Of a stretch of 64,000 nt of DNA, positions 8,859 through 59,067 are shown in pieces. The first letter of the stretch is position 1. Each line of letters starts with the position of its first letter. Under the pieces are notes generated by a model that ran no database searches, was not told where the DNA came from, and was given only the letters and a program-made list of their open reading frames with translations. The translations under genes were made by a program, and so were the position numbers. Origin of the DNA: a virus (Duplodnaviria > Caudoviricetes). Location: the IMG/VR virus record IMGVR_UViG_3300031857_023573, positions 128,001 through 192,000 of that record; one strand, given 5' to 3'.

Positions 8859-9056
8859 TTAAAACTCCTCTTCTTGTCTTTTCTTTTTTTCTAAATAAAT
8901 TGCCTTTTTAACTTCGTCTCTTCTTTGTACAGATTTTTTTGTATAACTCTGTCTGTTTCTAAGTTCCCTAAGAACTTTAGTGCTATCAAATTTTCTTTTG
9001 AATTTTTTTAAAGCTCTTTCAATAGTATCTTTACCAGTAACTTCAATTATTATCAT
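8859..9056 (-). CDS. rpsU: 30S ribosomal protein bS21, Bacteroidota-like
   Basis: 65 aa, basic; IERALKKFKRKFD...LRELRNRQSYTKKSVQRR matches the bS21 pattern; start overlaps the upstream stop (ATGA). Confidence 0.93.
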   Translation of the reverse strand: MIIIEVTGKDTIERALKKFKRKFDSTKVLRELRNRQSYTKKSVQRRDEVKKAIYLEKKKRQEEEF

Positions 9057-9325
9057 AAGATTGTTTTTAATTTTATATCTCTAATTAGTTGATTTCTTTC
9101 TGCTTCTGACATTTTTTTAAAGTCTTCAAATTTTATATCAAATCCTAGTGCAGCCAGTACAATCTCAAAAAAACTAGTAAGATCCTTATCGATAGATATA
9201 TTAGTGTCCCAAGTTCCTCCTCCACTTGAGTACACCAAATGACTCCCAGACGTGAGCGTTGTTCCACTTATAACCCCGGTGTTTATTGAACTAGCAATAT
9301 TTATATTATTATAGGTATTTGACAT
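9053..9325 (-). CDS. Hypothetical protein with C-terminal IRDIKLKTIL motif
   Basis: 90-aa ORF; its TGA stop overlaps the rpsU ATG. Confidence 0.65.
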   Translation of the reverse strand: MSNTYNNINIASSINTGVISGTTLTSGSHLVYSSGGGTWDTNISIDKDLTSFFEIVLAALGFDIKFEDFKKMSEAERNQLIRDIKLKTIL

Positions 9326-9333
9326 AAGTATTT

Positions 9334-9342
9334 TATATATTA
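9334..9342 (-). promoter_or_regulatory. Putative late-promoter motif TAATATATA (bS21 operon)
   Basis: Exact motif 8 nt upstream of the 9325 start; recurs upstream of structural genes. Confidence 0.4.
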
Positions 9343-9347
9343 TATTT

Positions 9348-9617
9348 TCACTTAAAGTTCAAAACTTGCTCAAGTTTTAAATTTCTCAAGTTTTCCTTGA
9401 TATTTATAACAAATAGATTCATAGAATCAACTTTGGATACGCCACGATATGTCATTTTAATTATTTTACTATCAAAACTTTTTATAATCGGGTAGGTATC
9501 TTCAGGTAGTTGTTCAACTGTCCATATTGGCAACATTTTATCAATATCAAATCTGATATTATAGTCTGTGTATTCTACAAACCTACCATCTATACTATAT
9601 TTTACAAGCACCTCCAT
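9348..9617 (-). CDS. Hypothetical protein with C-terminal LRNLKLEQVL motif
   Basis: ORF-track frame; ATG at 9617 (MEVLVKY), immediately after the SbcC stop, is preferred to the longer overlapping start. Confidence 0.6.
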   Translation of the reverse strand: MEVLVKYSIDGRFVEYTDYNIRFDIDKMLPIWTVEQLPEDTYPIIKSFDSKIIKMTYRGVSKVDSMNLFVINIKENLRNLKLEQVLNFK

Positions 9618-9618
9618 T

Positions 9619-11322
9619 TTATTGCTCTTCGATATGCAATTCTTCAATAGTTGAAAATACTTCTTTGTTAACTCTAATTATTCTATCGAACATCTCTTGA
9701 TTCAATACAGCGTGATGTACTACAAAGATATTAACGTTATATTGATTTGAGAATGATTTCAAAAGACCAAGTATTTTTTGAATATTTTCTAAGTCAACAC
9801 TTGAAAATACTTCATCTAAAAACAAGATGTTAATATGTTTTTTTGTTCTAATAAGCATTAAGTAAGCAGTTAAAATACAAATATTGGTGAGTTTCTGCTC
9901 ACCTGTACTTAGACTCTCAGAGTCAATTACAGAACCAAGATGTTTGATTTCAGCATTAAAAGTCTCATCAAGTGAAACTTCAAAATGCATACCCATTTTC
10001 TTAATATTTTCATTAATGAAGAAGTTAATAGGCTTAATTATTCCTGCAATAATTGATTTTTTGACACCATCTTCACCAAATATTCTGTTTAGTTCTTTAT
10101 AATAAAGCTCTTTATCTTTACAAAGAGATGAATTATTCGAAGATACTTTTTTCTTTTCACTAAGTTCGTTTATCGCATTTTCAAATTCTTGAACATTCTC
10201 TGATGCCTTACCGTCTTCTCTTAATTGTTTGTTTTGTAATTTTTCAATCTGTAACTTACAATTTTTCAAATAATAAGTCATATCATTAAATGCTTTAAGA
10301 GCATTGTCTGATATTGGTTGTAATTTGAGTTGTTTTTCTTTTATAGATTTTATATTTGATTCGAGTTCTACTTTGATATTTTCTAAAGACTGTTTTTTCT
10401 CTAAAAGAGTTCCCCTAAGTGCGATAAAATGTTCAGAGTCAAAATCTGTTTTACACATTGGGCACTTTCCAGAATCAAAAAGATCAATTTCTTTTTGGAT
10501 TGATTTAATATCAGTCTGTAAAATAATATACTGACTTTTCTCTTGATCTATTTCTTCTTTTAATTCTATATCTTTAGATTTTATTTTTTCAATTTTTTCT
10601 TTAAGTAGTTTATATTCTTCTTTTTTGGACTCCATATCCGATTTGATCTTGTCAATCTCTACTTGAGTATTCTCTTTTTCCTTCTCAATTGCTTTAGTTA
10701 TTGAATTCTGAATTGATTGAATAGACTCATTAAGTGTGGATATCTCTGAATCTAGAGATGCCATTCTAATTTTATTATTCTTATTTAACTCTTTTAATAT
10801 AGAATTTAAAATATTGATTACTTCTAAATTGAATAGTTTATCTAAAAGAAGTTGTTTTTCTTCATTTGACAATGAGATAAAGTTCTTGAACGAGTCAACA
10901 CTCATAGACATGAAAGACTTGAATGTTTCAATATCCATTCCAATATAGTCTTCTATCTTTTCATCAATATTAGATTTTCCAGCTCTTTCATTTAATACAC
11001 CGTTCTCCCAGATTTCTAGAACATTTGGAGAGATTCCTCTTTTAACTTCAATATTAGTTCCTTTAGATTTAAATTTTATGTCTATCAACATCTCACCACC
11101 ATTAATCCTGTTTGGTAAAGTTGAAAGAGTTGCCCACTTTTTTTTTGATCCTGAACATTTACCATACAAAGAGAAGTCAACTGATCTTAGTAATGTTGAC
11201 TTTCCAGCACCATTTTGACCGACTAATAATACTAAATCCCCTTTTTCAGTATTAAGCTTTATAGATTGTCTAGAGTTTCCAAAAGATTTGAAGTTCCTTA
11301 TTCCAATTTCTTCTATTAACAT
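9619..11322 (-). CDS. SbcC/Rad50/T4 gp46-like recombination ATPase
   Basis: Walker A GQNGAGKST, long coiled coil with CPMC zinc hook, signature LSTGEQ, Walker B LFLDEVF, terminal H-loop VVHH. Confidence 0.92.
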   Translation of the reverse strand: MLIEEIGIRNFKSFGNSRQSIKLNTEKGDLVLLVGQNGAGKSTLLRSVDFSLYGKCSGSKKKWATLSTLPNRINGGEMLIDIKFKSKGTNIEVKRGISPNVLEIWENGVLNERAGKSNIDEKIEDYIGMDIETFKSFMSMSVDSFKNFISLSNEEKQLLLDKLFNLEVINILNSILKELNKNNKIRMASLDSEISTLNESIQSIQNSITKAIEKEKENTQVEIDKIKSDMESKKEEYKLLKEKIEKIKSKDIELKEEIDQEKSQYIILQTDIKSIQKEIDLFDSGKCPMCKTDFDSEHFIALRGTLLEKKQSLENIKVELESNIKSIKEKQLKLQPISDNALKAFNDMTYYLKNCKLQIEKLQNKQLREDGKASENVQEFENAINELSEKKKVSSNNSSLCKDKELYYKELNRIFGEDGVKKSIIAGIIKPINFFINENIKKMGMHFEVSLDETFNAEIKHLGSVIDSESLSTGEQKLTNICILTAYLMLIRTKKHINILFLDEVFSSVDLENIQKILGLLKSFSNQYNVNIFVVHHAVLNQEMFDRIIRVNKEVFSTIEELHIEEQ

Positions 11323-11339
11323 TTATAATAACTTATTTT

Positions 11340-11348
11340 TAATATATA
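11340..11348 (+). promoter_or_regulatory. Putative late-promoter motif TAATATATA
   Basis: Exact motif 28 nt upstream of the small Zn-finger ORF at 11377. Confidence 0.35.
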
Positions 11349-11376
11349 CCTTATATAACATTTAAAATGCTTTGTT

Positions 11377-11529
11377 ATGAAGATTTGTATCAAATGTAAT
11401 CTAGAAAAATTAGAATCAGATTTTAAAAAGAAATCCAAAAAGTGCATCGAATGTTATAAGTCTTATCAAGCTAATTATCGTTTTATAAAATATGATTATT
11501 CTTCAGAAGTCTCAATATCTTGCAATTGA
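11377..11529 (+). CDS. Small CxxC...CxxC zinc-finger ORF (50 aa), possibly a homing-endonuclease N-terminal remnant; not in the ORF track
   Basis: Hand translation: MKICIKCNLEKLESDFKKKSKKCIECYKSYQANYRFIKYDYSSEVSISCN*. The last 34 nt overlap the convergent gene. Confidence 0.55.
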   Translation: MKICIKCNLEKLESDFKKKSKKCIECYKSYQANYRFIKYDYSSEVSISCN

Positions 11530-11777
11530 TCAACCATGTTTTCAAAAGGTTCACACTGTTCTATTATAGACTTCATAAGTGGTAGATAATCTGAGTGTTC
11601 TTCTATATATGACCCAAGAGCTTTTATTAGACTGTCATCAACGGTCAATAACATTTTATCAGCAGTATAGTAGAAAATCGAGTCATGATATGTGTCTCTA
11701 TACATCAAACCAATAGATACTAAAATCCCACCTTCGAACTTTCCAATATAATCAATTATTGATCCGGTTATTTCCAT
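11496..11777 (-). CDS. Hypothetical protein
   Basis: 93-aa ORF in a co-directional run. Confidence 0.6.
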   Translation of the reverse strand: MEITGSIIDYIGKFEGGILVSIGLMYRDTYHDSIFYYTADKMLLTVDDSLIKALGSYIEEHSDYLPLMKSIIEQCEPFENMVDQLQDIETSEE

Positions 11778-11982
11778 CTAAAATAAGACCTAATTTTTCA
11801 TCTCGGATATTTTTTAAATATCCATTATTGTTTAATGTGTTGAATAAAGATGTAGATATACCTTTTCTGCCCTCTTCATGTGTGTAAATCATATCTCGAT
11901 AATAATCATGTATTTTATTCGCAGTTTCTTTATCTAAAGAGTTTATCTTTTCTAAATCTAAGTAGTATTGTGTTAAATCCAT
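11752..11982 (-). CDS. Hypothetical protein with IRDEKLGLIL motif near the C-terminus
   Basis: 76-aa ORF in a co-directional run. Confidence 0.6.
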   Translation of the reverse strand: MDLTQYYLDLEKINSLDKETANKIHDYYRDMIYTHEEGRKGISTSLFNTLNNNGYLKNIRDEKLGLILDGNNRINN

Positions 11983-11987
11983 TCTTT

Positions 11988-12260
11988 TTAATCTAAATAA
12001 AATTCTAACTTCTTAAATTTATCATCCAAATCAGTGAAAACTATAGATATTTTCTCTGGTTTTCTAATTTCTTCAGCCTCACCTTTGACTTCATTCAAAA
12101 TAACATCTTTCTTGTATTGAATTTCAATGCCCGGTTCTTCACCAAGAAACTTTCTCATATCTTCTTTAATTATCGAAGTTTTCCAATCCTCTCTTGTGAA
12201 ATCTATATTTAGAATATATTCTCTAATTGCATTTTCTTTCATTGAAGCCATAATTTTCAA
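11988..12260 (-). CDS. Hypothetical protein
   Basis: About 90 aa; alternative ATG starts at 12251 and 12242. Confidence 0.6.
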   Translation of the reverse strand: MKIMASMKENAIREYILNIDFTREDWKTSIIKEDMRKFLGEEPGIEIQYKKDVILNEVKGEAEEIRKPEKISIVFTDLDDKFKKLEFYLD

Positions 12261-12300
12261 TTATATTTTAATTTATATATCTTATTGATATATTAGTTCA

Positions 12301-14556
12301 TTACTGATATGGAAAAAACGGAAGTGTAATTTTAGTATTTGCGTTATCAGCAAACACCAAATACTTAGAATCATCAGCAATAATATATTGATTAAGGATC
12401 TTATTATGTTCTGATACAGGTATTACTTCAGAGAACAATCTGATATTAGTCATCTTCATATCTGAAGCAAATATTTGAGTATCGATTCCTACCAACTCAA
12501 AATCAACTGGTACAAAAGTTTGACTATCATAATAAACCTTTTCTAACACGGTTGAAGAAAGGAATTTAGCCTCTTCTTCTGCATCAATCTCTACATTACG
12601 CTTATAAATCCACTGATTTAACTTTCTATTTCTTTGATCCACATTCAATACATAGCAATACCAAACATTTTCATATAAGTCAGATGTTGAATAAGTTGAC
12701 CCAGTAAAACTAAACGTATAAGTATCCGAATTAATGTTTAAAGAAATATTATCATTTTTCAAGTTAACTTGCCAACCCAAATTATTCACTGTATCATAAT
12801 TTGTAAGGAAATTATAACTTTCATCTGTCACATAATTATTCAAATTGAACCACATATAAAATCCAATATTGTCCGATACCTTTATTCTTGAATCAACTGA
12901 TTTATAAGTGATCGCAGTTATAGACTGTGTTGCCAATTGGAATCCATTATAGAGTAGATTAGAAAAATCATAATGTTGCTTAGACACAATTGTAGTCGAG
13001 TTTTCAATTAATTCTTTCACAATTTCAGCCTTATACTGAAGTCTAATTGGATCTCTAGTAAGTGGTTGAAGTTGTGGTTTGTTTGCAATCGAGTCTTTAT
13101 CTTGTCTGTTTTCAACTCCGAATAACTCATCAATAGTCGTATTCTTCGTGAGTTCCTTTATCCTATCATTAATTTCATTAGTTGCTGCGATAACATTTGC
13201 AGATTTGTTGTATTTCTTCAATACAACTTTATAATAAATTGCGGCATTATTGAAATTTCTGAACTGTTGAGCATGATCAACAATAAACATTCTATTGATG
13301 TCACAGAAGTAAATTAGGTCTTCTTTTGATGGTCTTCTTTGAACACCAAAAGCTGCCTTAAATGATTCTTTGGTAATATGTATTTCAAAAGAGTCAAAAA
13401 GAGTTAGGTCAAACTGGTTCATTACAATTTGATTATCCGGAAACTGGTTATTTTCAACTGCAACCTTGATTTCCTCTTCACAGACAATATTAAATAGTTG
13501 AAATTCATGAAGAGTATAATCTATACCTTTACCATCTGGATCTGTTACAAAGTATTTAACTCTCCACCCAAATATTTCAATCGAATCATTACTTAGTCTA
13601 TTAAGTAGATTCATAGCTTGTGTTTGTTGGTAAGGATTATATAGCTTAGACTTTTCATCTGCAGTCATTGGTTTTAAAATATTACCAGTTGTACAAGATT
13701 GAGCATCTAACACACCGGTAGTGTTTGCAATCAAGTTACCATTTTCGTCTAAAACTCCATTTGATGTTCCAAGTAAATAAGATTGGCAGCAATCTCTTAT
13801 ACCATAAAGATTAGTCTTTGAATAATCTTGTGTAACATTTTGAAAGTCTCCTATTAAGTTAATATCTTGAATTTTAACACTTGAAGCAGAATTATTTACT
13901 ATTAGATATTCAATTTGAAAAAATCTAATTGGATTAATTCTTTTAGTCGAAATGTTTTCTTTTGTGAATGGTTCCCATTCGGTCCAATTTCTTGAATTAT
14001 CTTGTGAAAATCTGTATAAAAAGTCAACTCCAGATAAATTGTTTGGTGATATTATTTCTATATCAGTTATTGAAAATACTTTGTATATAAATGGTGGTTT
14101 TATTATTCCTTGCTTACCACTTCCAATAATTACATTCTCATTTGATGTGTCTTGTAGAAGTTTACCATTTAGTTCGAATGAAGTAAGTCTTATCTCTCCG
14201 TCTGTTTTTGTACCACTTCTTATAAACTTTATATCGATCCACATTTTATCAAGTGGATCAAAAGGTGGGAAATTTGTTATTTGCTCTTTAAGTTCTAACC
14301 AACTAGTCCAGGTATTCCCATTTCTAGAAATTCTATACTGTGTTTCAAGATATCTTGACTCTAAAACACCAGTTGCTACATAAGAGAAGTTAGTAAACTC
14401 TTCAACCTTTTCTAATTGTATAAAAGAAATAACATACTCATCACCTACTTCATAAAAGTATGGAGTTGCATCACTAGCCGTTGAACCTGCTAAAGTATTA
14501 TAGGACTGAGAAATAATAATACTTCCAGTAGTAAAATCATTTGTAACTTGTGACAT
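12301..14556 (-). CDS. Neck/head-completion protein: T4 gp14-like domain fused to an N-terminal extension and a C-terminal LamG/ConA-like domain
   Basis: Central FDSFEIHITKESFKAAFGVQRRPSKEDLIYFCDINRMFIVDH resembles gp14 (PKEGDLIYFP...LFEI). C-terminal IGFYMWFN...WYCYVLNV...MTNIRLFSEVI has the LamG pattern. Confidence 0.65.
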   Translation of the reverse strand: MSQVTNDFTTGSIIISQSYNTLAGSTASDATPYFYEVGDEYVISFIQLEKVEEFTNFSYVATGVLESRYLETQYRISRNGNTWTSWLELKEQITNFPPFDPLDKMWIDIKFIRSGTKTDGEIRLTSFELNGKLLQDTSNENVIIGSGKQGIIKPPFIYKVFSITDIEIISPNNLSGVDFLYRFSQDNSRNWTEWEPFTKENISTKRINPIRFFQIEYLIVNNSASSVKIQDINLIGDFQNVTQDYSKTNLYGIRDCCQSYLLGTSNGVLDENGNLIANTTGVLDAQSCTTGNILKPMTADEKSKLYNPYQQTQAMNLLNRLSNDSIEIFGWRVKYFVTDPDGKGIDYTLHEFQLFNIVCEEEIKVAVENNQFPDNQIVMNQFDLTLFDSFEIHITKESFKAAFGVQRRPSKEDLIYFCDINRMFIVDHAQQFRNFNNAAIYYKVVLKKYNKSANVIAATNEINDRIKELTKNTTIDELFGVENRQDKDSIANKPQLQPLTRDPIRLQYKAEIVKELIENSTTIVSKQHYDFSNLLYNGFQLATQSITAITYKSVDSRIKVSDNIGFYMWFNLNNYVTDESYNFLTNYDTVNNLGWQVNLKNDNISLNINSDTYTFSFTGSTYSTSDLYENVWYCYVLNVDQRNRKLNQWIYKRNVEIDAEEEAKFLSSTVLEKVYYDSQTFVPVDFELVGIDTQIFASDMKMTNIRLFSEVIPVSEHNKILNQYIIADDSKYLVFADNANTKITLPFFPYQ

Positions 14557-14560
14557 GATG

Positions 14561-14569
14561 TATATATTA
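14561..14569 (-). promoter_or_regulatory. Putative late-promoter motif TAATATATA (gp14-like gene)
   Basis: Exact motif only 4 nt upstream of the ATG at 14556. Confidence 0.4.
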
Positions 14570-14623
14570 AAACTGATATATTTATAAGATATAAATAAAT
14601 TTTTGAAAATTTGTTAATAAAAA

Positions 14624-14654
14624 TTTGTTAAAAAGTTAAAATTCCTTATATTTG
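14624..14654 (+). promoter_or_regulatory. Bacteroidota-type sigma70 promoter TTTG-N19-TAnnTTTG
   Basis: TTTG at 14624-14627, 19-nt spacer, TATATTTG at 14647-14654; 33 nt upstream of the peptidase ATG. Confidence 0.65.
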
Positions 14655-14687
14655 TATTGTATTATTACCTAATATAGTTATTCTATT

Positions 14688-15893
14688 ATGAATATTAAAG
14701 AAACATTTTTACAACTAACCACACGAACTTATCCACATGGATATGAACACCAGCTTTTTGATAAGCTCCCACAAAACCTTGAAATGGATGAATTTGGAAA
14801 CCTTTTTATAAAAATTGGTGACAGTGATGTAATGTTCACTTCACACCTTGATACCGCGACTTCAGCGCTTACTACAGTTAATCACGTCTTTGAAGGAGAC
14901 ATAATCAAAACTGATGGTAAATCTATACTCGGCGCAGATGATAAAGCAGGTGTTACAATTATGCTCTATATGATCGAAAACAAGATACCCGGTCTTTACT
15001 ATTTCTTCTTAGGTGAAGAAGTTGGATGTCTTGGTTCTAAGAAAGTTGCTGAAAAACATCGTCAAGAAAAACTTGACTATATCAAAAAGGTTATTTCTTT
15101 TGATCGTAGGGGTACAGATTCAGTAATAACATTTCAATCAAGTTCAAGATGTTGTTCTGAAAAATTCGCAACAGAACTCTCTACTCAGCTTAACTTGGTC
15201 AATGATGGTTTTAAATACAAGAATGATCCAACTGGTATCTACACAGATTCTGCACAATTTGTATCAATATATCCTGAATGTACCAATATTTCAGTGGGTT
15301 ACTACTCAGAGCACACACACAGTGAGCGTCAAGATATTGCTCACTTAGAGAAACTTGCAAAAGCATGTTTAAAAGTTGATTGGTCTAGTCTACCTGTAGA
15401 AAGAGATCCCGGAAAAGTTGAATACTCTTCAAGTAGTTATTCTGGTTATGGATACGGATGGGGATCTTGGGAAGACTATTCTTCTGGATATCGATATGAA
15501 GAAAAGACATATACGTCAACTAAAAAAGATGATCAAAAAGTTACTTTCTATGATGAAGAATATAGATATGTAAGTGATATTACAATTAATACATCAACTG
15601 GTGATATCAAAGATGTAAATCTTGCACCGGAAAGAGTTCAAGAAGAAAGAAGACTCATTTCTAATTTCTTGGAAGATCTAGAACTTGAGTATACTAGTTT
15701 TATTTGGAATGGTCTTAAGCTCTCAGTTTATTATAAAGACGGAAGAGTAACTGATGCAAGTAGACTTGAATTGGAAGAGTATATCAGTGAACTTGATGTC
15801 ACTAAATTAATTGATAGTTGTGATGAAAAAGAGTATCAGAACAATCTGAGACTTTCTGACAGAGATTGGTCTGATCTTGAATATTGGTATTAA
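14688..15893 (+). CDS. M28/M20-type zinc metallopeptidase with C-terminal extension
   Basis: Metal-ligand motifs SHLDT, GADDKAG, GEEVG, DRRG and terminal EHT; followed by an S/Y/G-rich linker and an acidic C-terminal domain. Confidence 0.8.
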   Translation: MNIKETFLQLTTRTYPHGYEHQLFDKLPQNLEMDEFGNLFIKIGDSDVMFTSHLDTATSALTTVNHVFEGDIIKTDGKSILGADDKAGVTIMLYMIENKIPGLYYFFLGEEVGCLGSKKVAEKHRQEKLDYIKKVISFDRRGTDSVITFQSSSRCCSEKFATELSTQLNLVNDGFKYKNDPTGIYTDSAQFVSIYPECTNISVGYYSEHTHSERQDIAHLEKLAKACLKVDWSSLPVERDPGKVEYSSSSYSGYGYGWGSWEDYSSGYRYEEKTYTSTKKDDQKVTFYDEEYRYVSDITINTSTGDIKDVNLAPERVQEERRLISNFLEDLELEYTSFIWNGLKLSVYYKDGRVTDASRLELEEYISELDVTKLIDSCDEKEYQNNLRLSDRDWSDLEYWY

Positions 15894-15922
15894 AATAATT
15901 TAAAAAATTATTCCTAAAATAA

Positions 15923-15951
15923 AAACTTTTTTATATATTAGCGATACTATA
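15923..15951 (+). promoter_or_regulatory. Putative promoter AAACTTT-N15-TACTATA for the tRNA
   Basis: Same bipartite pattern as upstream of several other genes; ends 14 nt before the tRNA. Confidence 0.4.
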
Positions 15952-15965
15952 GAGACACAATTTTT

Positions 15966-16039
15966 GGACGAGTAATTCAGTTGGTTAGAATGCGACACTC
16001 ATAATGTTGAAGTCGGGGGTTCGAATCCCTCCTTGTCCA
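15966..16039 (+). tRNA. tRNA with CAT anticodon (elongator Met, or Ile2 if lysidine-modified); CCA not encoded
   Basis: Acceptor GGACGAG/CTTGTCC+A; D arm ATTC/GAAT; anticodon stem CGACA/TGTTG with loop CTCATAA; T arm GGGGG-TTCGAAT-CCCTC. Lacks the initiator GGG/CCC anticodon stem and the 1:72 mismatch. Confidence 0.93.
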
Positions 16040-16047
16040 CTTTAGAG

Positions 16048-16070
16048 ACCCAGATTTATTCTGGGTTTTT
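16048..16070 (+). terminator. Rho-independent terminator after the tRNA
   Basis: ACCCAGA-TTTAT-TCTGGGT hairpin followed by a T run. Confidence 0.75.
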
Positions 16071-20471: not shown

Positions 20472-20975
20472 ATGAAACTAGAAATAGAAAGAAAGTTTTT
20501 ACTAAAAAGTCTTCCTAAAATTCAACCCACTCAGTCAATTAATATAGATCAATATTATTTTAAAAATTCATCTGGTATATGGGAACGTGCTCGTACCTGG
20601 GAAACTGATGATGGTGAAATAAAATATATTCATACTATTAAAAAAAGTGTATCTAAAGGGGTAAACATTGAAGATGAATATGAGATGTCGGAGTCTGACT
20701 ATGGTAAATTTGTATCAACTTGTCGCAAGTCTGTAGTTGATTCAAAATTTATTAAAAAAACCAGATATATATATCCAGATGGAGAGTTAAAATGGGAAGT
20801 TGATCTATTTCACGGTGATTATAAATTAATTATCGCAGAAATTGAAATCCCAAAAAAAACTTACAAATTAACAGTACCTGATTTTATAAAAGATGTTAGT
20901 CTTTTAGAAGTCACTGGATTAAAACAATTTAATAACAGAAGTCTATCTATTAAGATTGATAAAAATGCAAATTAA
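20472..20975 (+). CDS. CYTH-domain (triphosphate tunnel metalloenzyme) protein
   Basis: N-terminal EIERKFLL motif, KTRY, WEVDLF, IAEIE; ATG at 20472. Confidence 0.85.
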   Translation: MKLEIERKFLLKSLPKIQPTQSINIDQYYFKNSSGIWERARTWETDDGEIKYIHTIKKSVSKGVNIEDEYEMSESDYGKFVSTCRKSVVDSKFIKKTRYIYPDGELKWEVDLFHGDYKLIIAEIEIPKKTYKLTVPDFIKDVSLLEVTGLKQFNNRSLSIKIDKNAN

Positions 20976-21312
20976 AGTCTTAAATAAAATTTTTGATTGT
21001 ATAGATGGTTCGGTTCAACTTTCATTTGGATCACATGCTACTATAGATTTGAATTTTGATATAAATCAATGTCAATGTTATGACCATTTTATTAAAATTT
21101 ATGAATCAAACGCTAAATTTGAAATTGAGTCTAAAACCTTTTTAGGAAAGGGTTGTCACATCAAAGCTTTTGATATTGACTACAATCAAAATAGGATGAA
21201 TATTTCAATACATTGTGATTTACTCAATCCTATCGACTTGCAAATAAGACGAGAAGATTTTTTGAACGATATACTTACTAAAACTTTTATTAATAAAGAC
21301 GATATAAATTAA
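20956..21312 (+). CDS. Hypothetical protein with IRREDFLNDIL motif near the C-terminus
   Basis: About 118-aa ORF between CYTH and ClpC. Confidence 0.55.
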   Translation: MIKMQIKVLNKIFDCIDGSVQLSFGSHATIDLNFDINQCQCYDHFIKIYESNAKFEIESKTFLGKGCHIKAFDIDYNQNRMNISIHCDLLNPIDLQIRREDFLNDILTKTFINKDDIN

Positions 21313-21329
21313 ACAAAAATACTATTATT

Positions 21330-23453
21330 ATGGATAAAATCATTTCTGATGAAAATTACATCAAAGAAAATTACGATATCAAAAACGCCTTGAGTGATGA
21401 TGACGACGATATCGATGATAGTTTTAAAGCTAAGAAAAATCAAGGATCTAGTAAGACTCCTATACTCGACTCTTATAGTAGAGATCTAACCAAGTTCGCT
21501 GAAGAAGGAAAACTTGACCCAATTGTTGGTCGACTAAAAGAAATAGAACGAGTTTCTCAAATTCTTTCTAGAAGAAAGAAAAATAATCCAATTTTAATTG
21601 GTGAGCCTGGAGTTGGTAAGTCTGCTATAGCAGAGGGTCTTGCTCTGAAAATAGTTCAAAGAAAATGTTCTCGAGTTCTTTTTAACAAGAGAATTGTTAC
21701 TCTCGATCTAGCATCGATGGTGGCTGGTACTAAATATCGTGGTCAGTTTGAAGAGAGAATTAAAGCTCTTATGGCTGAACTTGAAAAAAATCCTGATATT
21801 ATACTATTCATCGATGAAATTCATACGATGATTGGAGCAGGTGGCGCTTCGGGATCACTTGATGCTTCAAATATGTTCAAACCAGCTCTAGCACGAGGAG
21901 AGATACAAATCATCGGCGCAACTACGATTGATGAGTACAGAAAACACATCGAAAAAGATGGCGCTCTTGAGCGTCGTTTTCAAAAAGTTATGGTAGAACC
22001 GGCAACAGTTGAAGAGACTTATCAAATTCTTAATAACATTAAAGATAAATATGAATCACATCACAATGTAAACTATACTGAAGAGGCTATTAAAGCATGT
22101 GTTGAATTAACATCAAGATATATGTCAGATAGATTTCTACCAGATAAGGCTATCGACGCTTTAGATGAGGCCGGATCAAGAGTGCATATTTCAAACATTG
22201 TTGTTCCTAAAAGTGTTACAGATATTGAACAAAAACTAGTAGATATCAAAGACAAAAAACAAGAAGTTGTAAAAAGTCAGCGATATGAGGAAGCCGCTAA
22301 ACTACGTGATGTTGAAAAACAACTTCAAAAATCACTTGAAGAAGCTCGTAAGAAGTGGGATGAAGATTCAAAAGAAAATCGTCAAACCGTTAATGAAGAG
22401 AATGTTGCGGAAGTTGTTTCTATGATGACTGGAATTCCTCTAACTAAGGTATCACAGAATGAAAATCAAAAACTTGCCAAAATGTATGACTCAATGTCCG
22501 GTAAGGTTATTGGACAAGATGATGCTGTGAAAAAAGTTGTTAAGGCAATCCAGCGAGGTAGAGTTGGAATGAAGGATCCTAATAAACCGGTATTTTCTGG
22601 TATTCTTATTGGAAACTCTGGCGTTGGTAAAACTGAACTCGCAAAACAACTAGCTAAATATCTTTTTGACTCAGAAGACGCACTTATTCGACTTGATATG
22701 TCTGAGTATATGGAAAAGATTTCTTTGACTAGAATTCAAGGTTCAGCTCCTGGTTATGTTGGATATGAAGATGCCAACGTTCTTGATAAAATCAGAAGAA
22801 AGCCATATTCTGTTGTACTTTTTGATGAGATTGAAAAAGCTCATCCTGATATTTTTAATTTATTTCTTCAAATGCTTGATGAAGGTCATGTAACAGATTC
22901 ACACGGTAGAAAAGTTAATTTTAAAAACTGTGTTATCTTGATGACTTCTAATGTTGGTACTAAGGTAGTTAAAGAATTTGGTTCTGGTGTTGGTTTCTCA
23001 ACAAAATCAAAGCAAGACTCTAAAGACTCTGATGTTAAAGATATTTTAGAGAAAGAACTTAAAAAGAAATTTGCCCCTGAGTTTATCAATCGTCTTGACG
23101 AGATCATTTACTTCAGAGATTTAGGTAAGGAGGAAATACTAAAAATAGTCGAACTAGAACTTACAAAAACGATCGCGAGAGCAAAAGAACTTGGATTTGA
23201 ACTTGAAATTACTGATGAATTAAAGACGCAACTTGTTGAAGTTGGATATGATCCTCAATATGGAGCAAGGCCATTAAAAAGAGCTTTACAAAAATGGATT
23301 GATGATTACGTCACAGAATTCATTATTGAGAATAATCCTAAACAAGGTTCGATACTAAAAATCAATTATGATTCTGAAAGCGATAAGACTATCGTGACTA
23401 ATGAATTCTCTAAATTAGAAACTAAAACTTCAAAAAGGAAGAAAAAAGAATAA
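21330..23453 (+). CDS. clpC: ClpC-like Hsp100 ATPase lacking the N-terminal Clp-repeat domain
   Basis: Two AAA+ modules ([15 protein letters not shown]; [17 protein letters not shown]), UVR-type middle coil ([11 protein letters not shown]), ClpP-docking loop [11 protein letters not shown]. Confidence 0.9.
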
Positions 23454-47873: not shown

Positions 47874-48839
47874 TCACATATCTGCGAAGAAATCATCCTC
47901 ATCTTCTGCCTTACTCGAAGAAGATGACGAAGAAGAAACAATTGATTCTTCAAAGTCAAAATCATCTGAAGTTGGTTTTGATTCAGTCTTAGAAGATACG
48001 AATCCTTGTGAAGACTTACCTGTCATAAAACCGATAATCTCATTGATTTTTCCCTGTTGAGTTTCGTCAAGTCTCTTAGGACCGAAATCTTCTAAATCGT
48101 GATCACGATCAACCAAGAAATCTTTAACCATAGTTTGAGCCTTAGCATCAATTTTACCATCTACGAGAGGTGCATTTTTGAAAATACCCTTTTCTTTGAA
48201 GTAAATTGGAAGAGAAGAAGCCTCTGGTTTAAACATAGACATTTTATAGTCTGGATATGTTTCATCACCAGTTTGAATTTCTTTTACCAAAAGAACAAAA
48301 TCCTTACCAGCTGAAAGATCAAATACATTACAAGAAACTCCTGAAATTTCTCCATTCTTTTCTGCTGAAATTTTATCTTTAATAGTCTTTCCGTATTGGA
48401 AAATCATAATTTTACCAACTAATTCAGGTTGTTGCTCGTCTTCAAGTACAAGTACATAAGAGTAATACTTTTTAGAGTATTTCAACATTTTTGCTCTTTC
48501 TTGAAGAATAGCATTTTTAGAATTAGTCAATTGGTAGTAAAGATCACTAAGAGCACACTTTTCACCAAAGTTCTTTGGACTATCAAAATATCCACAAAGT
48601 TCTTTTTGGTTTTTAATGTCTACATAGTGACTAATTTTTTCAAGAGCAAGTTGACCAACTTTACCTTCTTTTGTCAAATTTGGTAGGAATCGAACTACCG
48701 ATCGATATCCCTTTTTCTTGTCTTTTACTTTTGACAAATCAATACGATAGATACCATCAGTATTTGTTTTTGTCTGTTCATTCAAAAAATCCATTTTTGA
48801 ATCTAAATTGCCGAATAAATCATCATTCATTTCTGCCAT
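47874..48839 (-). CDS. Single-stranded DNA-binding protein, T4 gp32-like
   Basis: VVRFLP, EKCALS, KKYYSYVLVLED...GKIMIFQYGKTIKDKI, FDLSAGKDFVL, YPDY; acidic tail SSSSSSSKAEDEDDFFADM. Confidence 0.85.
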   Translation of the reverse strand: MAEMNDDLFGNLDSKMDFLNEQTKTNTDGIYRIDLSKVKDKKKGYRSVVRFLPNLTKEGKVGQLALEKISHYVDIKNQKELCGYFDSPKNFGEKCALSDLYYQLTNSKNAILQERAKMLKYSKKYYSYVLVLEDEQQPELVGKIMIFQYGKTIKDKISAEKNGEISGVSCNVFDLSAGKDFVLLVKEIQTGDETYPDYKMSMFKPEASSLPIYFKEKGIFKNAPLVDGKIDAKAQTMVKDFLVDRDHDLEDFGPKRLDETQQGKINEIIGFMTGKSSQGFVSSKTESKPTSDDFDFEESIVSSSSSSSSKAEDEDDFFADM

Positions 48840-51454: not shown

Positions 51455-51466
51455 AATGGTCTCTTC

Positions 51467-51494: not shown

Positions 51495-51516
51495 TAGGTC
51501 TAAATATTTTATCAAA

Positions 51517-51831
51517 ATGAAAAGTGAAATTAAAATAGAATTTTCAAATAAAAAAGAACTGAAAAAACTTATCGATAAAGCTTACTTCGAGAATGGATAT
51601 AAAGGTAAACTTCTTACAAGTGAAAATTTTATTGAAATTACTCCAGAGGTAGACGATGTTCTTTACTCAGTAATTAAAGGTCTCAATAACGCAACAATTA
51701 AAGTCTCAAATTTAGATATAATCGACGGTAACTGTAGATTTATCGTAGATGATACAGGAGAAAATCCTAAAATCTATCCCATATCGATGTATTGTATTAT
51801 TGATGATAATAAAAAATATATCTTTTATTAA
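51517..51831 (+). CDS. Hypothetical protein
   Basis: 104-aa ORF upstream of guaC. Confidence 0.6.
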   Translation: MKSEIKIEFSNKKELKKLIDKAYFENGYKGKLLTSENFIEITPEVDDVLYSVIKGLNNATIKVSNLDIIDGNCRFIVDDTGENPKIYPISMYCIIDDNKKYIFY

Positions 51832-51834
51832 AAT

Positions 51835-52794: not shown

Positions 52795-53030
52795 ATCATG
52801 TTCCACAACTCAGTTTCGATATCTTTGTCAATTAAAGAATTATCAGAGTTGATCAATTCGAGTAAGTTGCTCATTTTAGTTTCTAAAATTGACCACTCTT
52901 TAGAAGTATAGATCTCAGAGAGATCATCATTATGTCTAATTGAGTCAAAAGGAAATTGAAATCCATCAGGAGTGACAAAAATTTGTGAGCAAATTTCTAC
53001 AAAAGATTCTTTTAACTTTTCTTCATTCAT
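52791..53030 (-). CDS. Hypothetical protein
   Basis: 79-aa acidic ORF. Confidence 0.55.
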   Translation of the reverse strand: MNEEKLKESFVEICSQIFVTPDGFQFPFDSIRHNDDLSEIYTSKEWSILETKMSNLLELINSDNSLIDKDIETELWNMI

Positions 53031-53065
53031 TCTTCTAATATACTAAAATTTTAGAGATTGTCAAC

Positions 53066-53563
53066 CTAAATATCAATAATTTTTATAACATCTAGTCCCT
53101 TTCTACCCGGTAATACTGTTATAATATTAATTTCATATTCATTCTTTAACCATTTTTCTAAGTTAAATTCGAAAATTATAGAAATATTATATTCTATTGA
53201 ATAAATTGAATATCTACCAGTATTAAGAACATCTTTTCCTAAATAGTCTGGAAAGATTATGTTTACCGTTTCTCTAAAGAAATTATTAAACTCCTCAACT
53301 GTCCTAAAAGTGGTTCTATCAGATATTCTTTTCTTTAAATCATGTTTAGATGTATCATTCCAATTTATTTTAAATTGAACTTTTTTATTATTAACTCTTT
53401 TTTTCAGAGTAATAAACTTTACTAGATTTTTGTCAAAATCAAAAGTAACATCTTTTAATTTCTGTATTTCAGAAGAAACATTATCATCTTTTGAGGACTT
53501 GATATTAAGTACATCACTTAATCTTACCTCATTGAACTTTTTGAATTTATATAGATGTTTCAT
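53066..53563 (-). CDS. Hypothetical protein with N-terminal MKHLYKFKKFNE motif
   Basis: 165 aa; directly downstream of the gp13-like gene. Confidence 0.65.
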   Translation of the reverse strand: MKHLYKFKKFNEVRLSDVLNIKSSKDDNVSSEIQKLKDVTFDFDKNLVKFITLKKRVNNKKVQFKINWNDTSKHDLKKRISDRTTFRTVEEFNNFFRETVNIIFPDYLGKDVLNTGRYSIYSIEYNISIIFEFNLEKWLKNEYEINIITVLPGRKGLDVIKIIDI

Positions 53564-53584
53564 TGTATTAAGTATCCATCCAGT

Positions 53585-54364
53585 TCACTTTTTCACAAGA
53601 TAAAAGAAACTTGAATTCGATTGTCCTTTAATTTCCTCCTCTGCTTCCTTAATTTCGTCTTTTCCTTGAGACATAATGTCAGCTGAATTGATTTTTACGC
53701 CACCTGGCAAAACGTAATCATAACGACCAGTCAAATTAGCATATTGAACTTTTGCCCATCCAGTAACATATTTTACAAAAAGATCGTCTTTAAACAAATA
53801 TTCAGCTGGAATATTCGCATAAGCCTCAAGGATCACATCGTATTTTACATTAGTAAGTATGTGAAGTCTGTGATGTAATTGATTAAAATGATATTTGAGA
53901 GTGTACTTATTCAACTGATTCATCATATCACTCATTGAATCAAGTATAGTTTTATATACTCCGAGTTCACCGATTGTTGTTACATATGATGATAAATAAG
54001 GCTGATTTGTAACCCCTAAATTTACTGATAAGTTAGGTGTATTAATACCGAGTTGAAATAAACTTTCACCTCTTGCTTCGTAGAGATAAACAACACTTTG
54101 TATTTCACAAGGTACAGTAACGTATCTATATTTTGTAAATTCTTCAGTTTGAAAGGCTTCTTTGTGAACTAGAAAATACATTTTTTGTACTGAATACTGG
54201 TAATTACGGTAGAAGTATGGTAGAGCTCTAGTCTCAATAATTCTTCTGATTTCAGAATCTGGTAAAACTTTTGGAAGTGCGCATCCTACTGTTAGTTCAT
54301 TTTGAACAAAGTCTATAAACTCTTCTATTGTGTAACCACTTTGATAAGGTACGTAATCAGACAT
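53585..54364 (-). CDS. Neck/head-tail adaptor protein, T4 gp13-like
   Basis: C-terminal FVKYVTGWAKVQYANLTGRYDYVLPGGVKINSADIMSQGKDEI parallels gp13 (WVKDYATALAK...MLPGGVTID). Confidence 0.75.
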   Translation of the reverse strand: MSDYVPYQSGYTIEEFIDFVQNELTVGCALPKVLPDSEIRRIIETRALPYFYRNYQYSVQKMYFLVHKEAFQTEEFTKYRYVTVPCEIQSVVYLYEARGESLFQLGINTPNLSVNLGVTNQPYLSSYVTTIGELGVYKTILDSMSDMMNQLNKYTLKYHFNQLHHRLHILTNVKYDVILEAYANIPAEYLFKDDLFVKYVTGWAKVQYANLTGRYDYVLPGGVKINSADIMSQGKDEIKEAEEEIKGQSNSSFFYLVKK

Positions 54365-54382
54365 TTAGTTATTAATTTTATT

Positions 54383-54391
54383 TATATATTA
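54383..54391 (-). promoter_or_regulatory. Putative late-promoter motif TAATATATA (gp13-like gene)
   Basis: Exact motif 18 nt upstream of ATG 54364. Confidence 0.45.
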
Positions 54392-54453
54392 GATTTATAA
54401 ATCAAGAAACAAATCACCGACATTTTATATATAACAATAAATGTTAAAAATCT

Positions 54454-56259
54454 ATGAGAGACCTAATTATTGAAATGGCGAATAGAAATATAGGATCTTT
54501 AGTTTTATTTTTAAAAAATCCTAAAAATCATCTTTACATAGAGTATATAAATAAAAATATACCTATTGAGGTACAAGATTTACAAACATCAGAAAAAATA
54601 TATTACTTTGTTAATGATTTAAAGAGTATACATCTCTGTAGTTGCGGGAAACACAAGTCTTTCATTGGATTCAAAAATGGATATCGACAAACTTGTGGTG
54701 ATATGAAGTGCACAGTTAATAAAAGGAGAGAAACATGTATTCAAAAATGGGGTGTGGATAATCCGAAAAAATCTAAAGAGGTTATTGATCGTGAAAAACA
54801 GAATATTTTAGATAAATGGAATGGTGATCATTACATGAAAAATGAACAAGTGAGAAAAAAGTTCAATAGTACAATGGTTGAAAGATGGGGTGTCGAATGG
54901 GCTCAACAATCTGAAGAGATATCAAATAAAAGTAGAGAGACTTTTGAGAATAATGATAATAGAGAACAAATAATTGAAAATAGAACCAGTTCACTAATTA
55001 ATAAATCGAAATCAGAAAAGAAACAAATAGAGCAGAAGAAAAAGAAGACAATAGAAGATAAATTTGGAAGTTACGATAATTTTGTAAATTTTAGAAATGA
55101 TAAAATAAGACAAAAATCTTTGAAAAATTGGGGAGTTGATCATCACTTGAAAAGTAAAGAGATCATTGATAAACGTATTGAGTCTTATAAATTCAATATT
55201 GTTTCGAAAATTAAAGAGAACTTACCAGAAAATATCATCTTTATTGACAAGCGGGAAAATCTAAATAAGACTGATTCAGTTTTAAGATTTATGTGTAATA
55301 ACTGTTCAAATGAATTTGAAATGAATAGACAATTGTTTCAATTCAGAAAACTATCTAAAGAAGAAATTTGTATTAACTGTAACCCAATATTGGTTGGAAA
55401 ATCAAAGAAAGAAGGAGAAATTTTCGAATTTATTAGTCAGGTCTATAGTGGTATAGTTCTAAGAAATCATAAAGGTATAATTTCTAAAGAGCTCGATATA
55501 TACATACCTGATTTGAAGTTATCATTTGAATTTAATGGACTTTATTGGCACTCAGAGCTTTATCGAGATAAAAATTATCATCAAGAAAAGTCTAAAGAAT
55601 GTATTAATAATGGTATAGAACTAGTACACATCTGGGAAGATGAGTGGGACTTCAAAAGTGAAATAATTAAATCGATGATACTAAATAAATTAGGATCATC
55701 GAAAAAGATATGGGCGAGAAGTTGTGAAGTCAAAGAAATTGAAGATAACAAATTAATTACTGAATTCTTAAATAAAAATCATATCCAAGGAAGTGTCGGG
55801 TCCAAATATAAAATTGGTCTATTTTATAATGATGAATTGGTCTCGTTGATGACATTTGGTAATCTAAGAAGATCATTAGGCCATAAATCTAAGACTGATC
55901 ATTATGAATTAATTAGGTTTTGTAACAAATTAGGAGTGAGCGTTATCGGAGGTGCTTCTAAATTACTGAGTTATTTTATAAAAAAATATAATCCAGTAGA
56001 ACTACTAAGTTACTCAGATAACTCAAAAGGTCTAGGTGGTCTTTATGAAAAACTTGGATTTGAACTAGTAGGTGAAACTGAACCAAACTATTATTGGGTA
56101 GTGGATGGCTTTAGAAAACATAGATTTAACTTCCGAAAAGACAAGTTAGTCAAAAATAACTTTGATAAAAATAAGTCAGAAGTTCAAATTATGACAGAGA
56201 TGGGATATTATAGAATATTTGATTGTGCTAGTAAAAAATGGTCAAAAAAAATAATTTAA
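54454..56259 (+). mobile_element. Free-standing homing-endonuclease-like gene (Hef/Vsr-like nuclease domain with WGVxx DNA-binding repeats)
   Basis: Repeats KWGVDNP, RWGVEWA, NWGVDHH; CSCG and CxxC...CxxC Zn motifs; ELDIYIPDLKLSFEFNGLYWHS...LVHIWEDEW nuclease core; C-terminal domain ending RIFDC. Confidence 0.75.
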
Positions 56260-56307
56260 ACAAACCATATGAATTGTGTCTATAAATAATAAAAATATAC
56301 CCAAAAT

Positions 56308-57420
56308 ATGAAAACTATTGGTCTATGTATGATTGTAAAAAATGAGGCTCACGTTATCACAAGATGTATTGAGTCAGTAAAAAGAATCATAGACTATGTT
56401 TTAATTGTCGATACTGGTTCAGACGATGGAACTCCTGAGACAATTCAGAATTGGTTGGTAGAAAATAATTTTCCTGGACAGGTGGTAATTGAACCTTGGC
56501 AAAATTTCGCCTATAATCGTTCTTTCGCACTTGCAAAATTAAGAGAAGTCGAGCATATTGATTACGCATTAATGATTGATGCTGATGAGATATTGGTTTT
56601 CAATGAAGACTTTAATCCTGAATCTTTTAAAGAGTCACTTTGGGCGGATATCTATGACATTACCACTAATATGGGTGGTTTCATTTATAAAAGGCCTCAG
56701 CTTACTTCAAATCGTAGAATGTCGAAATATGATGGTGTAGTTCATGAGTTTTTATCACTTGAGGATGGTGGGTCAAGAGACCATGCAAATGGATTTCACA
56801 ATAGTCCAATTCAAGATAGTGCAAGAAACAGAAGTGGAAATAAATTTGAAAATGATGCTAAACTTCTTGAAGAAGCTCTGAAGGGTGATATTTCAGATTG
56901 GTTCAGATCAAGATATACCTTTTACTTAGCACAGTCTTATAGAGATTCTGGTAGACCTGAGTTGTCATTAGAAAAATATTTAGAAAGAGCAGACCAAGGT
57001 TTTTGGAATGAAGAAATTTATGTGAGTCTATATAACGCTGGAAATATCATGAAAGGTCTAAACTATCCGAAGGATCAAATTCTTCAGACTTATTTAAGAG
57101 CGTATGAGGTTTGTCCTCATAGAGTTGAAGTTCTTCACGCGGCCGTACAATATTGTAGAATTCACGGTATGAATCAGCAAGGATATATGATCGGAAAACA
57201 TGGTATAACAATTCCCCTTACTGATACATCTCTTTTTGTTGAGTCATGGGTTTATGATTATGGACTACTTGATGAATTTTCGATTGTTGCTTTTTGGGCA
57301 GGTCATTTTGAAGAGTCTAAAACTGCCTGTGAGAGACTCTTAAACGAAGGTAAAATCCCGGCACATTACATGGACAGGGTTAAATCAAACCTACAATTTG
57401 CCATTGACAGGCTTAGTTAA
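56308..57420 (+). CDS. GT2 glycosyltransferase with C-terminal TPR-like repeats
   Basis: [40 protein letters not shown] (DxD), [17 protein letters not shown]. Confidence 0.88.
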
Positions 57421-58465
57421 AATTCTCTGATTCTTTTAGAGACATTAGAATTTCCCTCTCATTATCATTAATTTGTTGAGGAACTTTCAAATTCATTTTA
57501 ATGAATAAATCTCCTGTTTGACTATTGAAATTTAAGTCGGGTACTCCTTTTCCAGTAACTCTGAGCACTTTTCCGTGAGTTGTTCCTGGTTGAACAGAGA
57601 ATTTGATATCACCTTGAGGTGTTTTCAAGAAAACTTCTTTTCCTAGAATAGCATCGACAATATTGATATCTTGTTCATAGACAAGATTATTATTCTCTCT
57701 CTTGAAATTTTGATCTGGAATTTCTTCTACGGTGACTAGAAGATCACCCGGTATACCACCTTTCACAGCATTTCCAAACTGATTTAAATTAAATGTTGCC
57801 CCATTAAATGATCCTTTTGGTATTTGAATATCTACGGTTTCTTCTTTTGGTATAACACCTTCTCCTCTACAGTTATTGCAGTTTGTTCTTACAATTTGTC
57901 CAGCTCCGTTGCAAGAATTACAAACAACTATTTGTTGAATTACACCAAATGGTGTATTTTGAACAATTTTTCTTTGACCAGAACCATGGCATACTCCACA
58001 AGTGGTTAAATCTTTTCCTCCGACACCATCACACATTGTGCAACTGGTGTGTCTGTTGTATTTAACTTTTTTTGAAAGACCGTTTATTACATCTTGTAAA
58101 GTAACGGTAACTTTCACTCTTAGATCTTGACCTTTTCTAGTCTGTGGTCTTTGACGGCCTCCTCCGCCAAATCCAAAAAAGTCTCCAAATCTAGAGAATA
58201 TATCATCCATACCAAATCCAGAGAACGGATTGCCTCCTCCGTGATTATCACCAACTGTTCCATAAGTATCATATTGTTGTTTTTTCTGAGGATTTGACAA
58301 AACGTCAAATGCCTCAGCACACTCTTTGAACTTTTCTTCAGATTGAGCGTCTCCAGGATTTTTATCTGGATGATATTTCATAGCTTGTTTTCTATAAGCC
58401 TTTTTAATATCATCAGCAGATGCTGATCTGTCAACTTCTAATATTTGATAGTAATCTTTACTCAT
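57413..58465 (-). CDS. dnaJ: Canonical type I DnaJ chaperone
   Basis: J domain with HPD, G/F region ([10 protein letters not shown]), four CxxCxGxG repeats, full C-terminal domains. Confidence 0.95.
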
Positions 58466-58506
58466 ATTATAAACTTTTTATTAAATTTTATTCAAAAACT
58501 ATACCA

Positions 58507-59067
58507 TTATAGACCTAAATGATTATTGAGTTTAGTATCTCTTATTTCACTTTGAATATCACTATTGGTCTTCTCTAAGGCATATTTTAATTTCCCTGCA
58601 ACATAATTTTCAACTATTAGTGTCATTATTTCAGTAGTTGAGTCTAAATTTTCAAAGTCATTTAGTGCCTTTGAATTCTTTTTAAACTTATCAGATAGTT
58701 CTGTTAGGAATTCTTCTAAGTTAAATTGTAACTGATAGAGTTCGAGTCGTAAGTCTTTTACAGTTTTTAAATACTGGTTTGTAGGATTGAATAATCCGGG
58801 TAAATCTATAAAAAATTTAGAATAAACTTTTCTTACAGTGGGTAAGACATATTCGAGTCTATTATTTCCTTCTGGATTTATCTCAGTTTTATTTATTGTT
58901 TTAGTAAATAACTTATGTTCAAAAAGTCTGTAATGAGTATTAATTGTTTCTTTAAAGAACTTTCTCAGAGAGATCGAATCTTGCTCGTTTTTTAATCCTC
59001 TTAATAGTGTATCTAATAAAACAACATTATCTAAATCTTTAAGTGATTTTGGATTTGAAAAAATCAT
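58507..59067 (-). CDS. Hypothetical protein with C-terminal IRDTKLNNHL motif
   Basis: 186 aa; lies between grpE and dnaJ. Confidence 0.65.
   Translation of the reverse strand: MIFSNPKSLKDLDNVVLLDTLLRGLKNEQDSISLRKFFKETINTHYRLFEHKLFTKTINKTEINPEGNNRLEYVLPTVRKVYSKFFIDLPGLFNPTNQYLKTVKDLRLELYQLQFNLEEFLTELSDKFKKNSKALNDFENLDSTTEIMTLIVENYVAGKLKYALEKTNSDIQSEIRDTKLNNHLGL

Follow-up and report, generated by a model that had tools for sequence, protein, structure and literature searches.

The stretch of DNA considered here (the window) comprises 64 kb, positions 128,001-192,000 of the IMG/VR record IMGVR_UViG_3300031857_023573 (Caudoviricetes), in which 74 genes were called. It comes from a huge freshwater phage, is AT-rich (28-35% G+C), and encodes several small proteins that finish in variants of one short peptide at the carboxyl terminus (C-terminus), which we call the tag. 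As a preliminary description of the sequence had proposed, the motif is recurrent: the strict pattern [IL]R[DN].KL..[IVLH]L has exactly four matches in the six frames of the window, all of them in real minus-strand open reading frames (ORFs), where they end 0, 3, 8 and 2 residues before the stop codon in the proteins P1, P2, P3 and P4, respectively. P1 (90 aa; 9053-9325, minus strand), whose gene overlaps the start of the S21 gene (rpsU, 8859-9056), ends SEAERNQLIRDIKLKTIL-stop with its tag IRDIKLKTIL (9056-9085, minus strand) flush with the stop, and its orthologues at related loci end in IRDIKINRILC, MRNHRLDNLLKNKE and IREMKINKIID. Among the tagged proteins, the sole near match to a known family was that of the P1 tail to phrog_9965, of unknown function (E = 0.003). 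The last 25 residues of P1 (9056-9130) also resemble the long helix of the phage GrpE (59064-59567, minus strand), 11 of 25 positions being identical, a likeness that is probably due to chance between two amphipathic helices. P2 is encoded by the ORF at 9348-9647 (minus strand), which has 99 aa, or more likely 89, given that the true start is probably the 11th codon; the version of P2 in the ESM Atlas begins at residue 11. It ends NIKENLRNLKLEQVLNFK-stop, with the tag LRNLKLEQVL at 9360-9389 (minus strand), and the ends found at the same gene position in relatives are IMRAKKLNDLGI and REIKLKQLGIK. For P2 the ESM Atlas gave no usable feature match; its model is poor, and the structural neighbours of that model were weak and ubiquitin-like.

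P3 (76 aa; 11752-11982, minus strand) ends GYLKNIRDEKLGLILDGNNRINN-stop and carries the tag IRDEKLGLIL at 11779-11808 (minus strand); in its family of 27 aligned homologues the R of the tag is kept in at least 90% and the K and L are invariant. P4 (186 aa; 58507-59067, minus strand), an all-helical protein encoded between grpE and dnaJ, ends DIQSEIRDTKLNNHLGL-stop with the tag IRDTKLNNHL (58516-58545, minus strand). Its family of 22 homologues, with identities down to 36%, has an invariant K, the R and the final L in at least 90% of members, and H at position 8, counting from the R. A fifth protein, P5 (118 aa; 20956-21312, plus strand), is encoded just upstream of a gene for a ClpC-like ATPase (21330-23453, plus strand) and bears the looser tag RREDFLNDIL (21247-21276, plus strand) 11 residues before the stop. 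Its orthologue in a related phage, likewise upstream of the ClpC-like gene, ends in RRDEIIDELLNNKTSENKTI and keeps the motif (RRDEIIDELL...), so that this case, first noted as a weaker match, is a real though looser member. A possible sixth member is the 90-aa protein at 11988-12260 (minus strand), which ends DDKFKKLEFYLD-stop (11994-12020), with DKFKKLEFYLD as its end, and whose orthologues end in NRFKKIEFIIDEKL, RFKKIEFILGEKI and DKFKKLEFIVGQKL; it may be a degenerate tag, its membership being uncertain because the invariant R is missing. When the window was scored with a position-weight matrix built from the same related phage, the top five sites were all C-terminal and included P5, in third place. 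The neighbourhood of S21, of grpE and dnaJ and of the ClpC-like gene is as the preliminary description had it. The leading I/L that it included in the motif is not conserved in orthologues, in which the conserved part begins with the R. The core can be written R-[DN]-x-K-[IL]-x-x-[IV]-L, mostly followed by 0-8 polar residues and the stop.

The phage was placed by means of its gp46/SbcC-like nuclease (9619-11322). The closest GenBank records by this protein are LR745206.1 and LR756502.1, 634-kb and 642-kb 'uncultured phage' genomes with 66-67% identity, and farther records include LR756504.1 (43%), LR756501.1 (735 kb, 31%), LR756500.1 (30%) and the Lak phages (31%). The four largest genomes reported by Al-Shayeb et al. 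(2020, PMC7162821) were assigned there to the Mahaphage clade, with predicted Bacteroidetes hosts. A megablast search of GenBank phages with the window gave no match, and a tblastn search of the same phages with a tagged 97-aa protein gave one close relative and nothing else. The comparisons described below concern a 385-kb IMG/VR relative with 68% gp46 identity (381 kb and 491 proteins used; hereafter, the relative) and four GenBank genomes. In the genome of Lak-A1 (MK250016.1, L105-L133), reading through TAG raised ORF coverage from 75% to 93%, in line with the TAG recoding that is reportedly found in Lak phages.

In the 74 proteins of the window, a slightly generalised pattern was found three times at C-termini, against 0.01 expected when residues were shuffled within proteins, and not once at interior positions, where 0.26 matches were expected. 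The relative offered a larger sample. Its generalised core, R-[DNEQ]-x-[KR]-[LIMV]-x-x-[ILVM]-[LIM] within 10 residues of the C-terminus, matched 27 times in 26 of the 491 proteins, while shuffled sequences gave 0.10 and reversed sequences none, an enrichment of about 200-fold at C-termini; copies of the core inside proteins numbered 10, with 1.3 expected. Moreover, a search blind to the motif, in which some 120,000 patterns of four residues, written in a reduced alphabet, were compared between the last 16 residues and the protein bodies, ranked the tag as the strongest C-terminal signal of the relative (37 vs 3.8 expected, p = 5e-24) and recovered it in LR756504.1 (73 vs 7.5 expected, p = 1e-45). 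The same search found no significant C-terminal tag of any sort in Lak-A1 MK250016.1. The recurrence first noted in the window is upheld and extended by these counts. In the 27 matches of the relative, position 8 is always I, V or L and position 9 always L or I, with D, N or E at position 2; the positions upstream of the core hold little information (0.6-1.1 bits), and the tails that follow tags in general run from 0 to 11 residues, mostly polar. The tag was also found to be restricted to viruses and was not found in bacterial proteomes. In this regard, a degenerate DNA pattern, in which a common form of the tag is followed by a single codon and a stop, matched 19 times in IMG/VR, in 18 cases at the end of ORFs of 76-226 aa, and 21 times in 596 Gb of bacterial and archaeal genomes, where only one match ended an ORF of more than 40 aa.

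What is conserved is the peptide rather than the DNA. The R of different tags is encoded by AGA, CGT or CGA and the L by TTA, CTA, CTT, CTG or TTG, and codon use at the tag positions is that of the genome, apart from a modest excess of ATA and AGA, which argues for selection acting on the peptide. The proteins that carry it are, as had been suggested, otherwise dissimilar. Once stripped of their tags, the bodies of the tagged proteins of the window, and likewise those of the relative, gave no BLAST match to each other, and between genomes only orthologue pairs were recovered; Pfam and PHROGs returned no significant family for the tagged proteins. Among these are cysteine-rich zinc ribbons, a P-loop protein, several small proteins rich in beta structure and others with membrane segments. 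All 32 tagged proteins of the relative have 73-249 aa, about 18% of its proteins of 60-100 aa being tagged, and no tag was seen there on any protein above 250 aa. None of the 32 has a homologue in LR756501.1, LR756500.1 or Lak-A1, whereas 28% of all genes of the relative match LR756501.1, which indicates that the carriers belong to a fast-evolving accessory pool. Words typical of promoters, sought upstream of the tagged genes, defined no timing class. One weakly homologous pair of proteins differs in a 30-residue tail that bears the tag, and internal copies have further sequence after them. An 83-aa cysteine-rich protein of the relative (G001:C1:261549-261800, plus strand, L029) ends in a tandem tag, RDYKIDYIL-RNEKIKNIL-K-stop. 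Altogether, the data support a portable tag, carried by bodies that are unrelated and that represent two or more different folds.

In three lineages of huge phages the tag has a version peculiar to each, with short forms that read RDxKIxxIL, RKxKIExL and RTxLIDxML. When matches to a genome's own version were counted within 12 residues of the C-terminus and elsewhere in proteins, version D1 (R[DN]xK[IL]xx[IV][LI]) gave 3 and 0 in the window and 20 and 4 in the relative, version D2 (RKx[KR]I[EDN]x[LIV]) gave 51 and 3 in LR756504.1, and version D3 (R[TS]xL[IM]Dx[MIV]L) gave 17 and 1 in LR756501.1. Use of another lineage's version was almost nil in every genome; LR756500.1 has one case of D1 type and Lak-A1 none. 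All three versions share R1 and have hydrophobic residues at positions 5 and 8. Two of the distant genomes also contain C-terminal peptides of other kinds. DPYGEE[DEN]W, with 1-3 acidic or polar residues after it, closes about 40 varied proteins of LR756501.1 (55-843 aa; for example, L037:5464-6261, minus strand) and is the top C-terminal pattern of that genome (41 vs 2.75 expected, p = 2e-33) and a second tag, unrelated to the helical one. In the 462-kb LR756500.1 (L080-L104), the ending NADDFG[FL][FLI]DN is shared by some 15 proteins, with lengths of 127-369 aa (13 vs 0.04 expected).

Structural models of two of the tagged proteins place the tag in a terminal helix, even though the size and the layout of secondary structure differ between them. 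The AlphaFold model of P4 (185 residues, pLDDT 88) is all-helical, the tag lying within the last helix (167-183), and a Foldseek search of the PDB with this model returned nothing at E <= 0.001. P3 is predicted to have a mainly helical core of 58 residues with pLDDT above 90, followed by a tag helix (59-70) with pLDDT of about 61; this drop in confidence next to a well-predicted core suggests that the tag helix of P3 is exposed and does not pack on its own body. Placed on a helix, R1, D/N2, K4, I5, I8 and L9 would fall within about 160 degrees of arc, with the variable positions 3, 6 and 7 opposite, a pattern to be expected of a single recognition face.

We consider that these observations are best explained if the motif serves as a portable tag by which its carriers dock on a single reader that co-evolves with it, a reading to which we give a probability of about 0.5. 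The tag, a short helix attached to many small, fast-evolving and otherwise unrelated accessory proteins, would dock by its conserved face in a groove of one shared reader protein, so that about 5-9% of the phage proteins would be gathered onto a single machine or place. Since the versions change in step across unrelated genes, the reader probably co-evolves with the tag and is probably encoded by the phage. The enrichment at C-termini, the unrelated bodies, the conservation in orthologues, the constraint on the peptide and the change in step support the portable protein-addressing code envisaged in the preliminary description; the partners that it named are not supported. A broader proposal, which we hold more tentatively than the docking tag itself, is that huge phages of the Mahaphage group possess a proteome-wide system of C-terminal addressing, with a phage-encoded, co-evolving reader of a 9-residue helix present on 5-9% of proteins. 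Such a system would account for the versions of each lineage and for the second tag, DPYGEExW, of the 735-kb phage.

Several points speak against a dedicated reader. Uniform versions within a genome could also come from a tag-coding segment that spreads inside it, with no reader involved. The tag of P4 lies in a confidently predicted last helix (pLDDT 81-90) and its family keeps H at position 8, so that in this protein the tag may be partly structural. A hydrophobic stripe of only 2-3 residues is little for a stable interface, and the gene calls are plain longest-ORF calls. Moreover, no reader has been singled out: 41 proteins co-occur with the tag, more than allow a choice, and the comparison covers only five lineages. 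Each of the 41, which are proteins of the relative, has a counterpart in the two other lineages that bear the tag and none in LR756500.1 or Lak-A1; among them are the ClpC-like unfoldase, two M28 peptidases, a small metallopeptidase and an M16 peptidase with the HLMEH motif, together with a NusG-like protein, a thioredoxin, two tRNA synthetases and about twenty unknowns. The M16 peptidase (G001:C1:210181-211299, minus strand, L027) is a compact protein of 372 aa with an intact HLMEH zinc site, and shows 45-52% identity in the tag-bearing lineages; several genes near it encode proteins that begin with an N-terminal K(F/Y)xxF tag.

The least weak candidate for the reader is the ClpC-like protein, a AAA+ unfoldase of 707 aa with a UVR middle domain and a ClpP-docking VGF loop (554-556), which has no Clp N-domain and carries at its N-terminus an acidic stretch of about 60 residues instead; even so, we regard this assignment as doubtful. 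Its presence invites another explanation, in which the tag is a signal for degradation or unfolding and the phage unfoldase, with host or phage ClpP, clears small early proteins on schedule. Such a view would fit the distribution of the ClpC-like gene, which every one of the three lineages with the tag possesses and which LR756500.1 and Lak-A1, both devoid of the tag, lack. It would also fit the abundance of peptidase genes among the co-occurring proteins and the position of the gene with the looser tag, which, both in the window and in the relative, lies directly upstream of the one for the ClpC-like protein. That adjacency, however, is confined to the window's own lineage, no tagged gene adjoining the ClpC-like gene in LR756504.1 or LR756501.1, and the co-occurrence of ClpC, one of the partners put forward earlier, with the tag, seen in four lineage comparisons, is common to 40 other proteins. 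ClpP itself is patchy: it was found in LR745206.1 and LR756504.1 but not in the 735-kb LR756501.1, with its at least 17 tagged proteins, nor in the relative. Internal copies and tails of 0-11 residues are also at odds with a degron that needs a free C-terminus, and all in all we find a degradation signal rather unlikely. Nor was support obtained for the other proposed partners. A link to DnaK, DnaJ or GrpE rests on the position of one gene. As for a sliding clamp, no tagged protein above 250 aa was seen, and the model of the gp45 C-terminal domain (PF09116) had no match at E <= 1 in the relative, a contig that is possibly incomplete. A BRCT domain was rejected as a general reader: neither LR756504.1 nor LR756501.1 has one, and where the domain occurs it is confined to the end of an ORF of 623-632 aa, whose size suggests to us a LigA-like ligase.

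Other explanations dispense with a separate protein reader, and all of them appear less probable still. The tag could be an amphipathic helix that takes its carriers to the inner membrane, as in MinD or FtsA, since it is terminal, short and helical, has basic residues beside its hydrophobic stripe and behaves as transplantable among unrelated proteins. Known membrane helices, on the other hand, keep their character and not their sequence, so that polar residues that are fixed, and an R that does not vary in any of the three versions, would be atypical; positions 2 and 6 are often acidic, the hydrophobic face is as narrow as noted above, some carriers already have membrane segments, and versions that change in step would be pointless against a lipid surface, all of which makes this an improbable solution. 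If the tags bound each other, giving oligomers or mixed assemblies of tagged proteins, the need for a mutual fit would also yield uniform versions in each genome, and the segment K-I-E-Q-I-L does occur as one heptad of a designed five-helix coil in the PDB, although not significantly (E = 0.51). A search of the PDB with the tag profile matched only such single heptads of designed coils. The tag has one hydrophobic heptad (I5, I8, L9), with the invariant R and the D/N predicted to occupy the core of the preceding one, and is thus too short for an autonomous coiled coil; moreover, in the W01 version the last hydrophobic residue is often missing. A two-copy prediction of P3 from an alignment of 27 rows scored 0.02 against a mark of 0.42 and counts neither for nor against binding, and we deem self-association quite unlikely. 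Much the same can be said of common descent without a common function, in which the carriers would be diverged paralogues of an old family and the tag their inherited last helix: many carriers lie in tandem arrays, several look SH3-like (a small beta domain followed by F/Y-x-x-x-E and the tag) and LR756501.1 has a few weak paralogue pairs. Yet among the bodies a protein of 186 aa that is helical throughout stands beside a 58-residue core that is mainly helical, zinc-ribbon and membrane proteins and one with a P-loop; apart from the tag they have no segment in common, and there are also the tandem double tag and the homologue pair of which one member lacks it. Finally, we hold it very improbable that nucleic acid, DNA or RNA, is what is conserved, with an A-rich end of the gene helping the next one to start translation and the peptide being incidental. 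The codons of the tag are A/T-rich, ATA (Ile) and AGA (Arg) are somewhat over-used in it, and many tagged genes abut the next one; against this, position-specific residues are kept through synonymous and conservative changes, the frame of the tag is always the coding frame, tags in the window also precede gaps of 22-41 bases and tags occur inside genes too, and the three versions differ in composition.

Around the tagged genes, the window encodes a chaperone set made up, besides GrpE, of J-domain proteins at 7731-8462 and at 57413-58465 (DnaJ, with its HPD motif) and of DnaK (62134-63999), as well as a gp32-like single-strand-binding protein (47874-48839). Among the chaperone genes, a 124-aa protein with a DUF1573 / Ig-like domain is encoded at 61751-62125 (minus strand), and a 175-aa protein of no known family adjoins grpE (59569-60096, minus strand); the latter is conserved in LR756501.1, and no homologue of it was found in LR756500.1 or Lak-A1.

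A docking tag of this kind would matter for several reasons. The genes of huge phages are mostly small and of unknown function, and a shared tag would place dozens of them in one functional class. The tag peptide is also an experimental handle, either as bait for the reader or as a reporter fusion to follow location or lifetime, and the lineage versions are natural specificity swaps with which candidate readers could be tested. Should the reader be a phage machine, such as an unfoldase, a packaging scaffold or a replication hub, the tag would amount to a protein-sorting code owned by the virus; if the tag is a membrane anchor or a structural helix instead, the outcome is more modest, yet many orphan genes would still be organised by it. 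To our knowledge, and in the literature searched, a sorting code on such a scale has not been described for phages. No description of the tag was found either, and the main text of the genome paper (PMC7162821) does not contain the term 'C-terminal'.

Among known systems, the ssrA tag, MuA and SspB-type peptides are alike in that a C-terminal peptide marks many proteins for one machine, but the present tag is helical and polar-ended, lacks the nonpolar free end of such degrons and exists in internal and tandem copies. An autonomous coiled coil has at least three heptads with hydrophobic a and d positions, and the tag has one. The C-terminal helices of MinD and FtsA are also short, transplantable and amphipathic, lie at the extreme C-terminus and contain basic residues, differing from the tag in its fixed sequence (an invariant R and a nearly invariant K), its tiny hydrophobic face and its lineage versions. 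The C-terminal tails by which gp43, gp33 and gp55 of T4 bind the clamp, the analogy first drawn for the motif, resemble it as a short end peptide borne by several unrelated proteins that meet at one hub, although the hub is here a conjectured one. T4 has a handful of such carriers and the phages studied here 26-59 per genome, which are accessory proteins of 73-249 aa and not replication or transcription factors; in this line, the 566-aa family-B polymerase ORF of the relative ends in IDEIKQLEAEL and is untagged, unlike the T4-type polymerase tail, and no homologues of gp33 and gp55 were located. The spacing of the tag, [DN]-x-x-[IL]-x-x-[IV]-L, mirrors that of the PIP-box, Q-x-x-[ILM]-x-x-[FY]-[FY], with which it agrees in spacing only, since the aromatic pair is missing. 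The tag is likewise unlike, in sequence, the peptides that direct cargo to the T4 capsid, to encapsulins and to microcompartments, and the T4 capsid targeting sequence is N-terminal and cleaved off. In their general design, however, these cargo peptides resemble the tag: they are terminal peptides of about 10-18 residues, often amphipathic helices, borne, like the tag, by otherwise unrelated proteins, which they address to one assembly.

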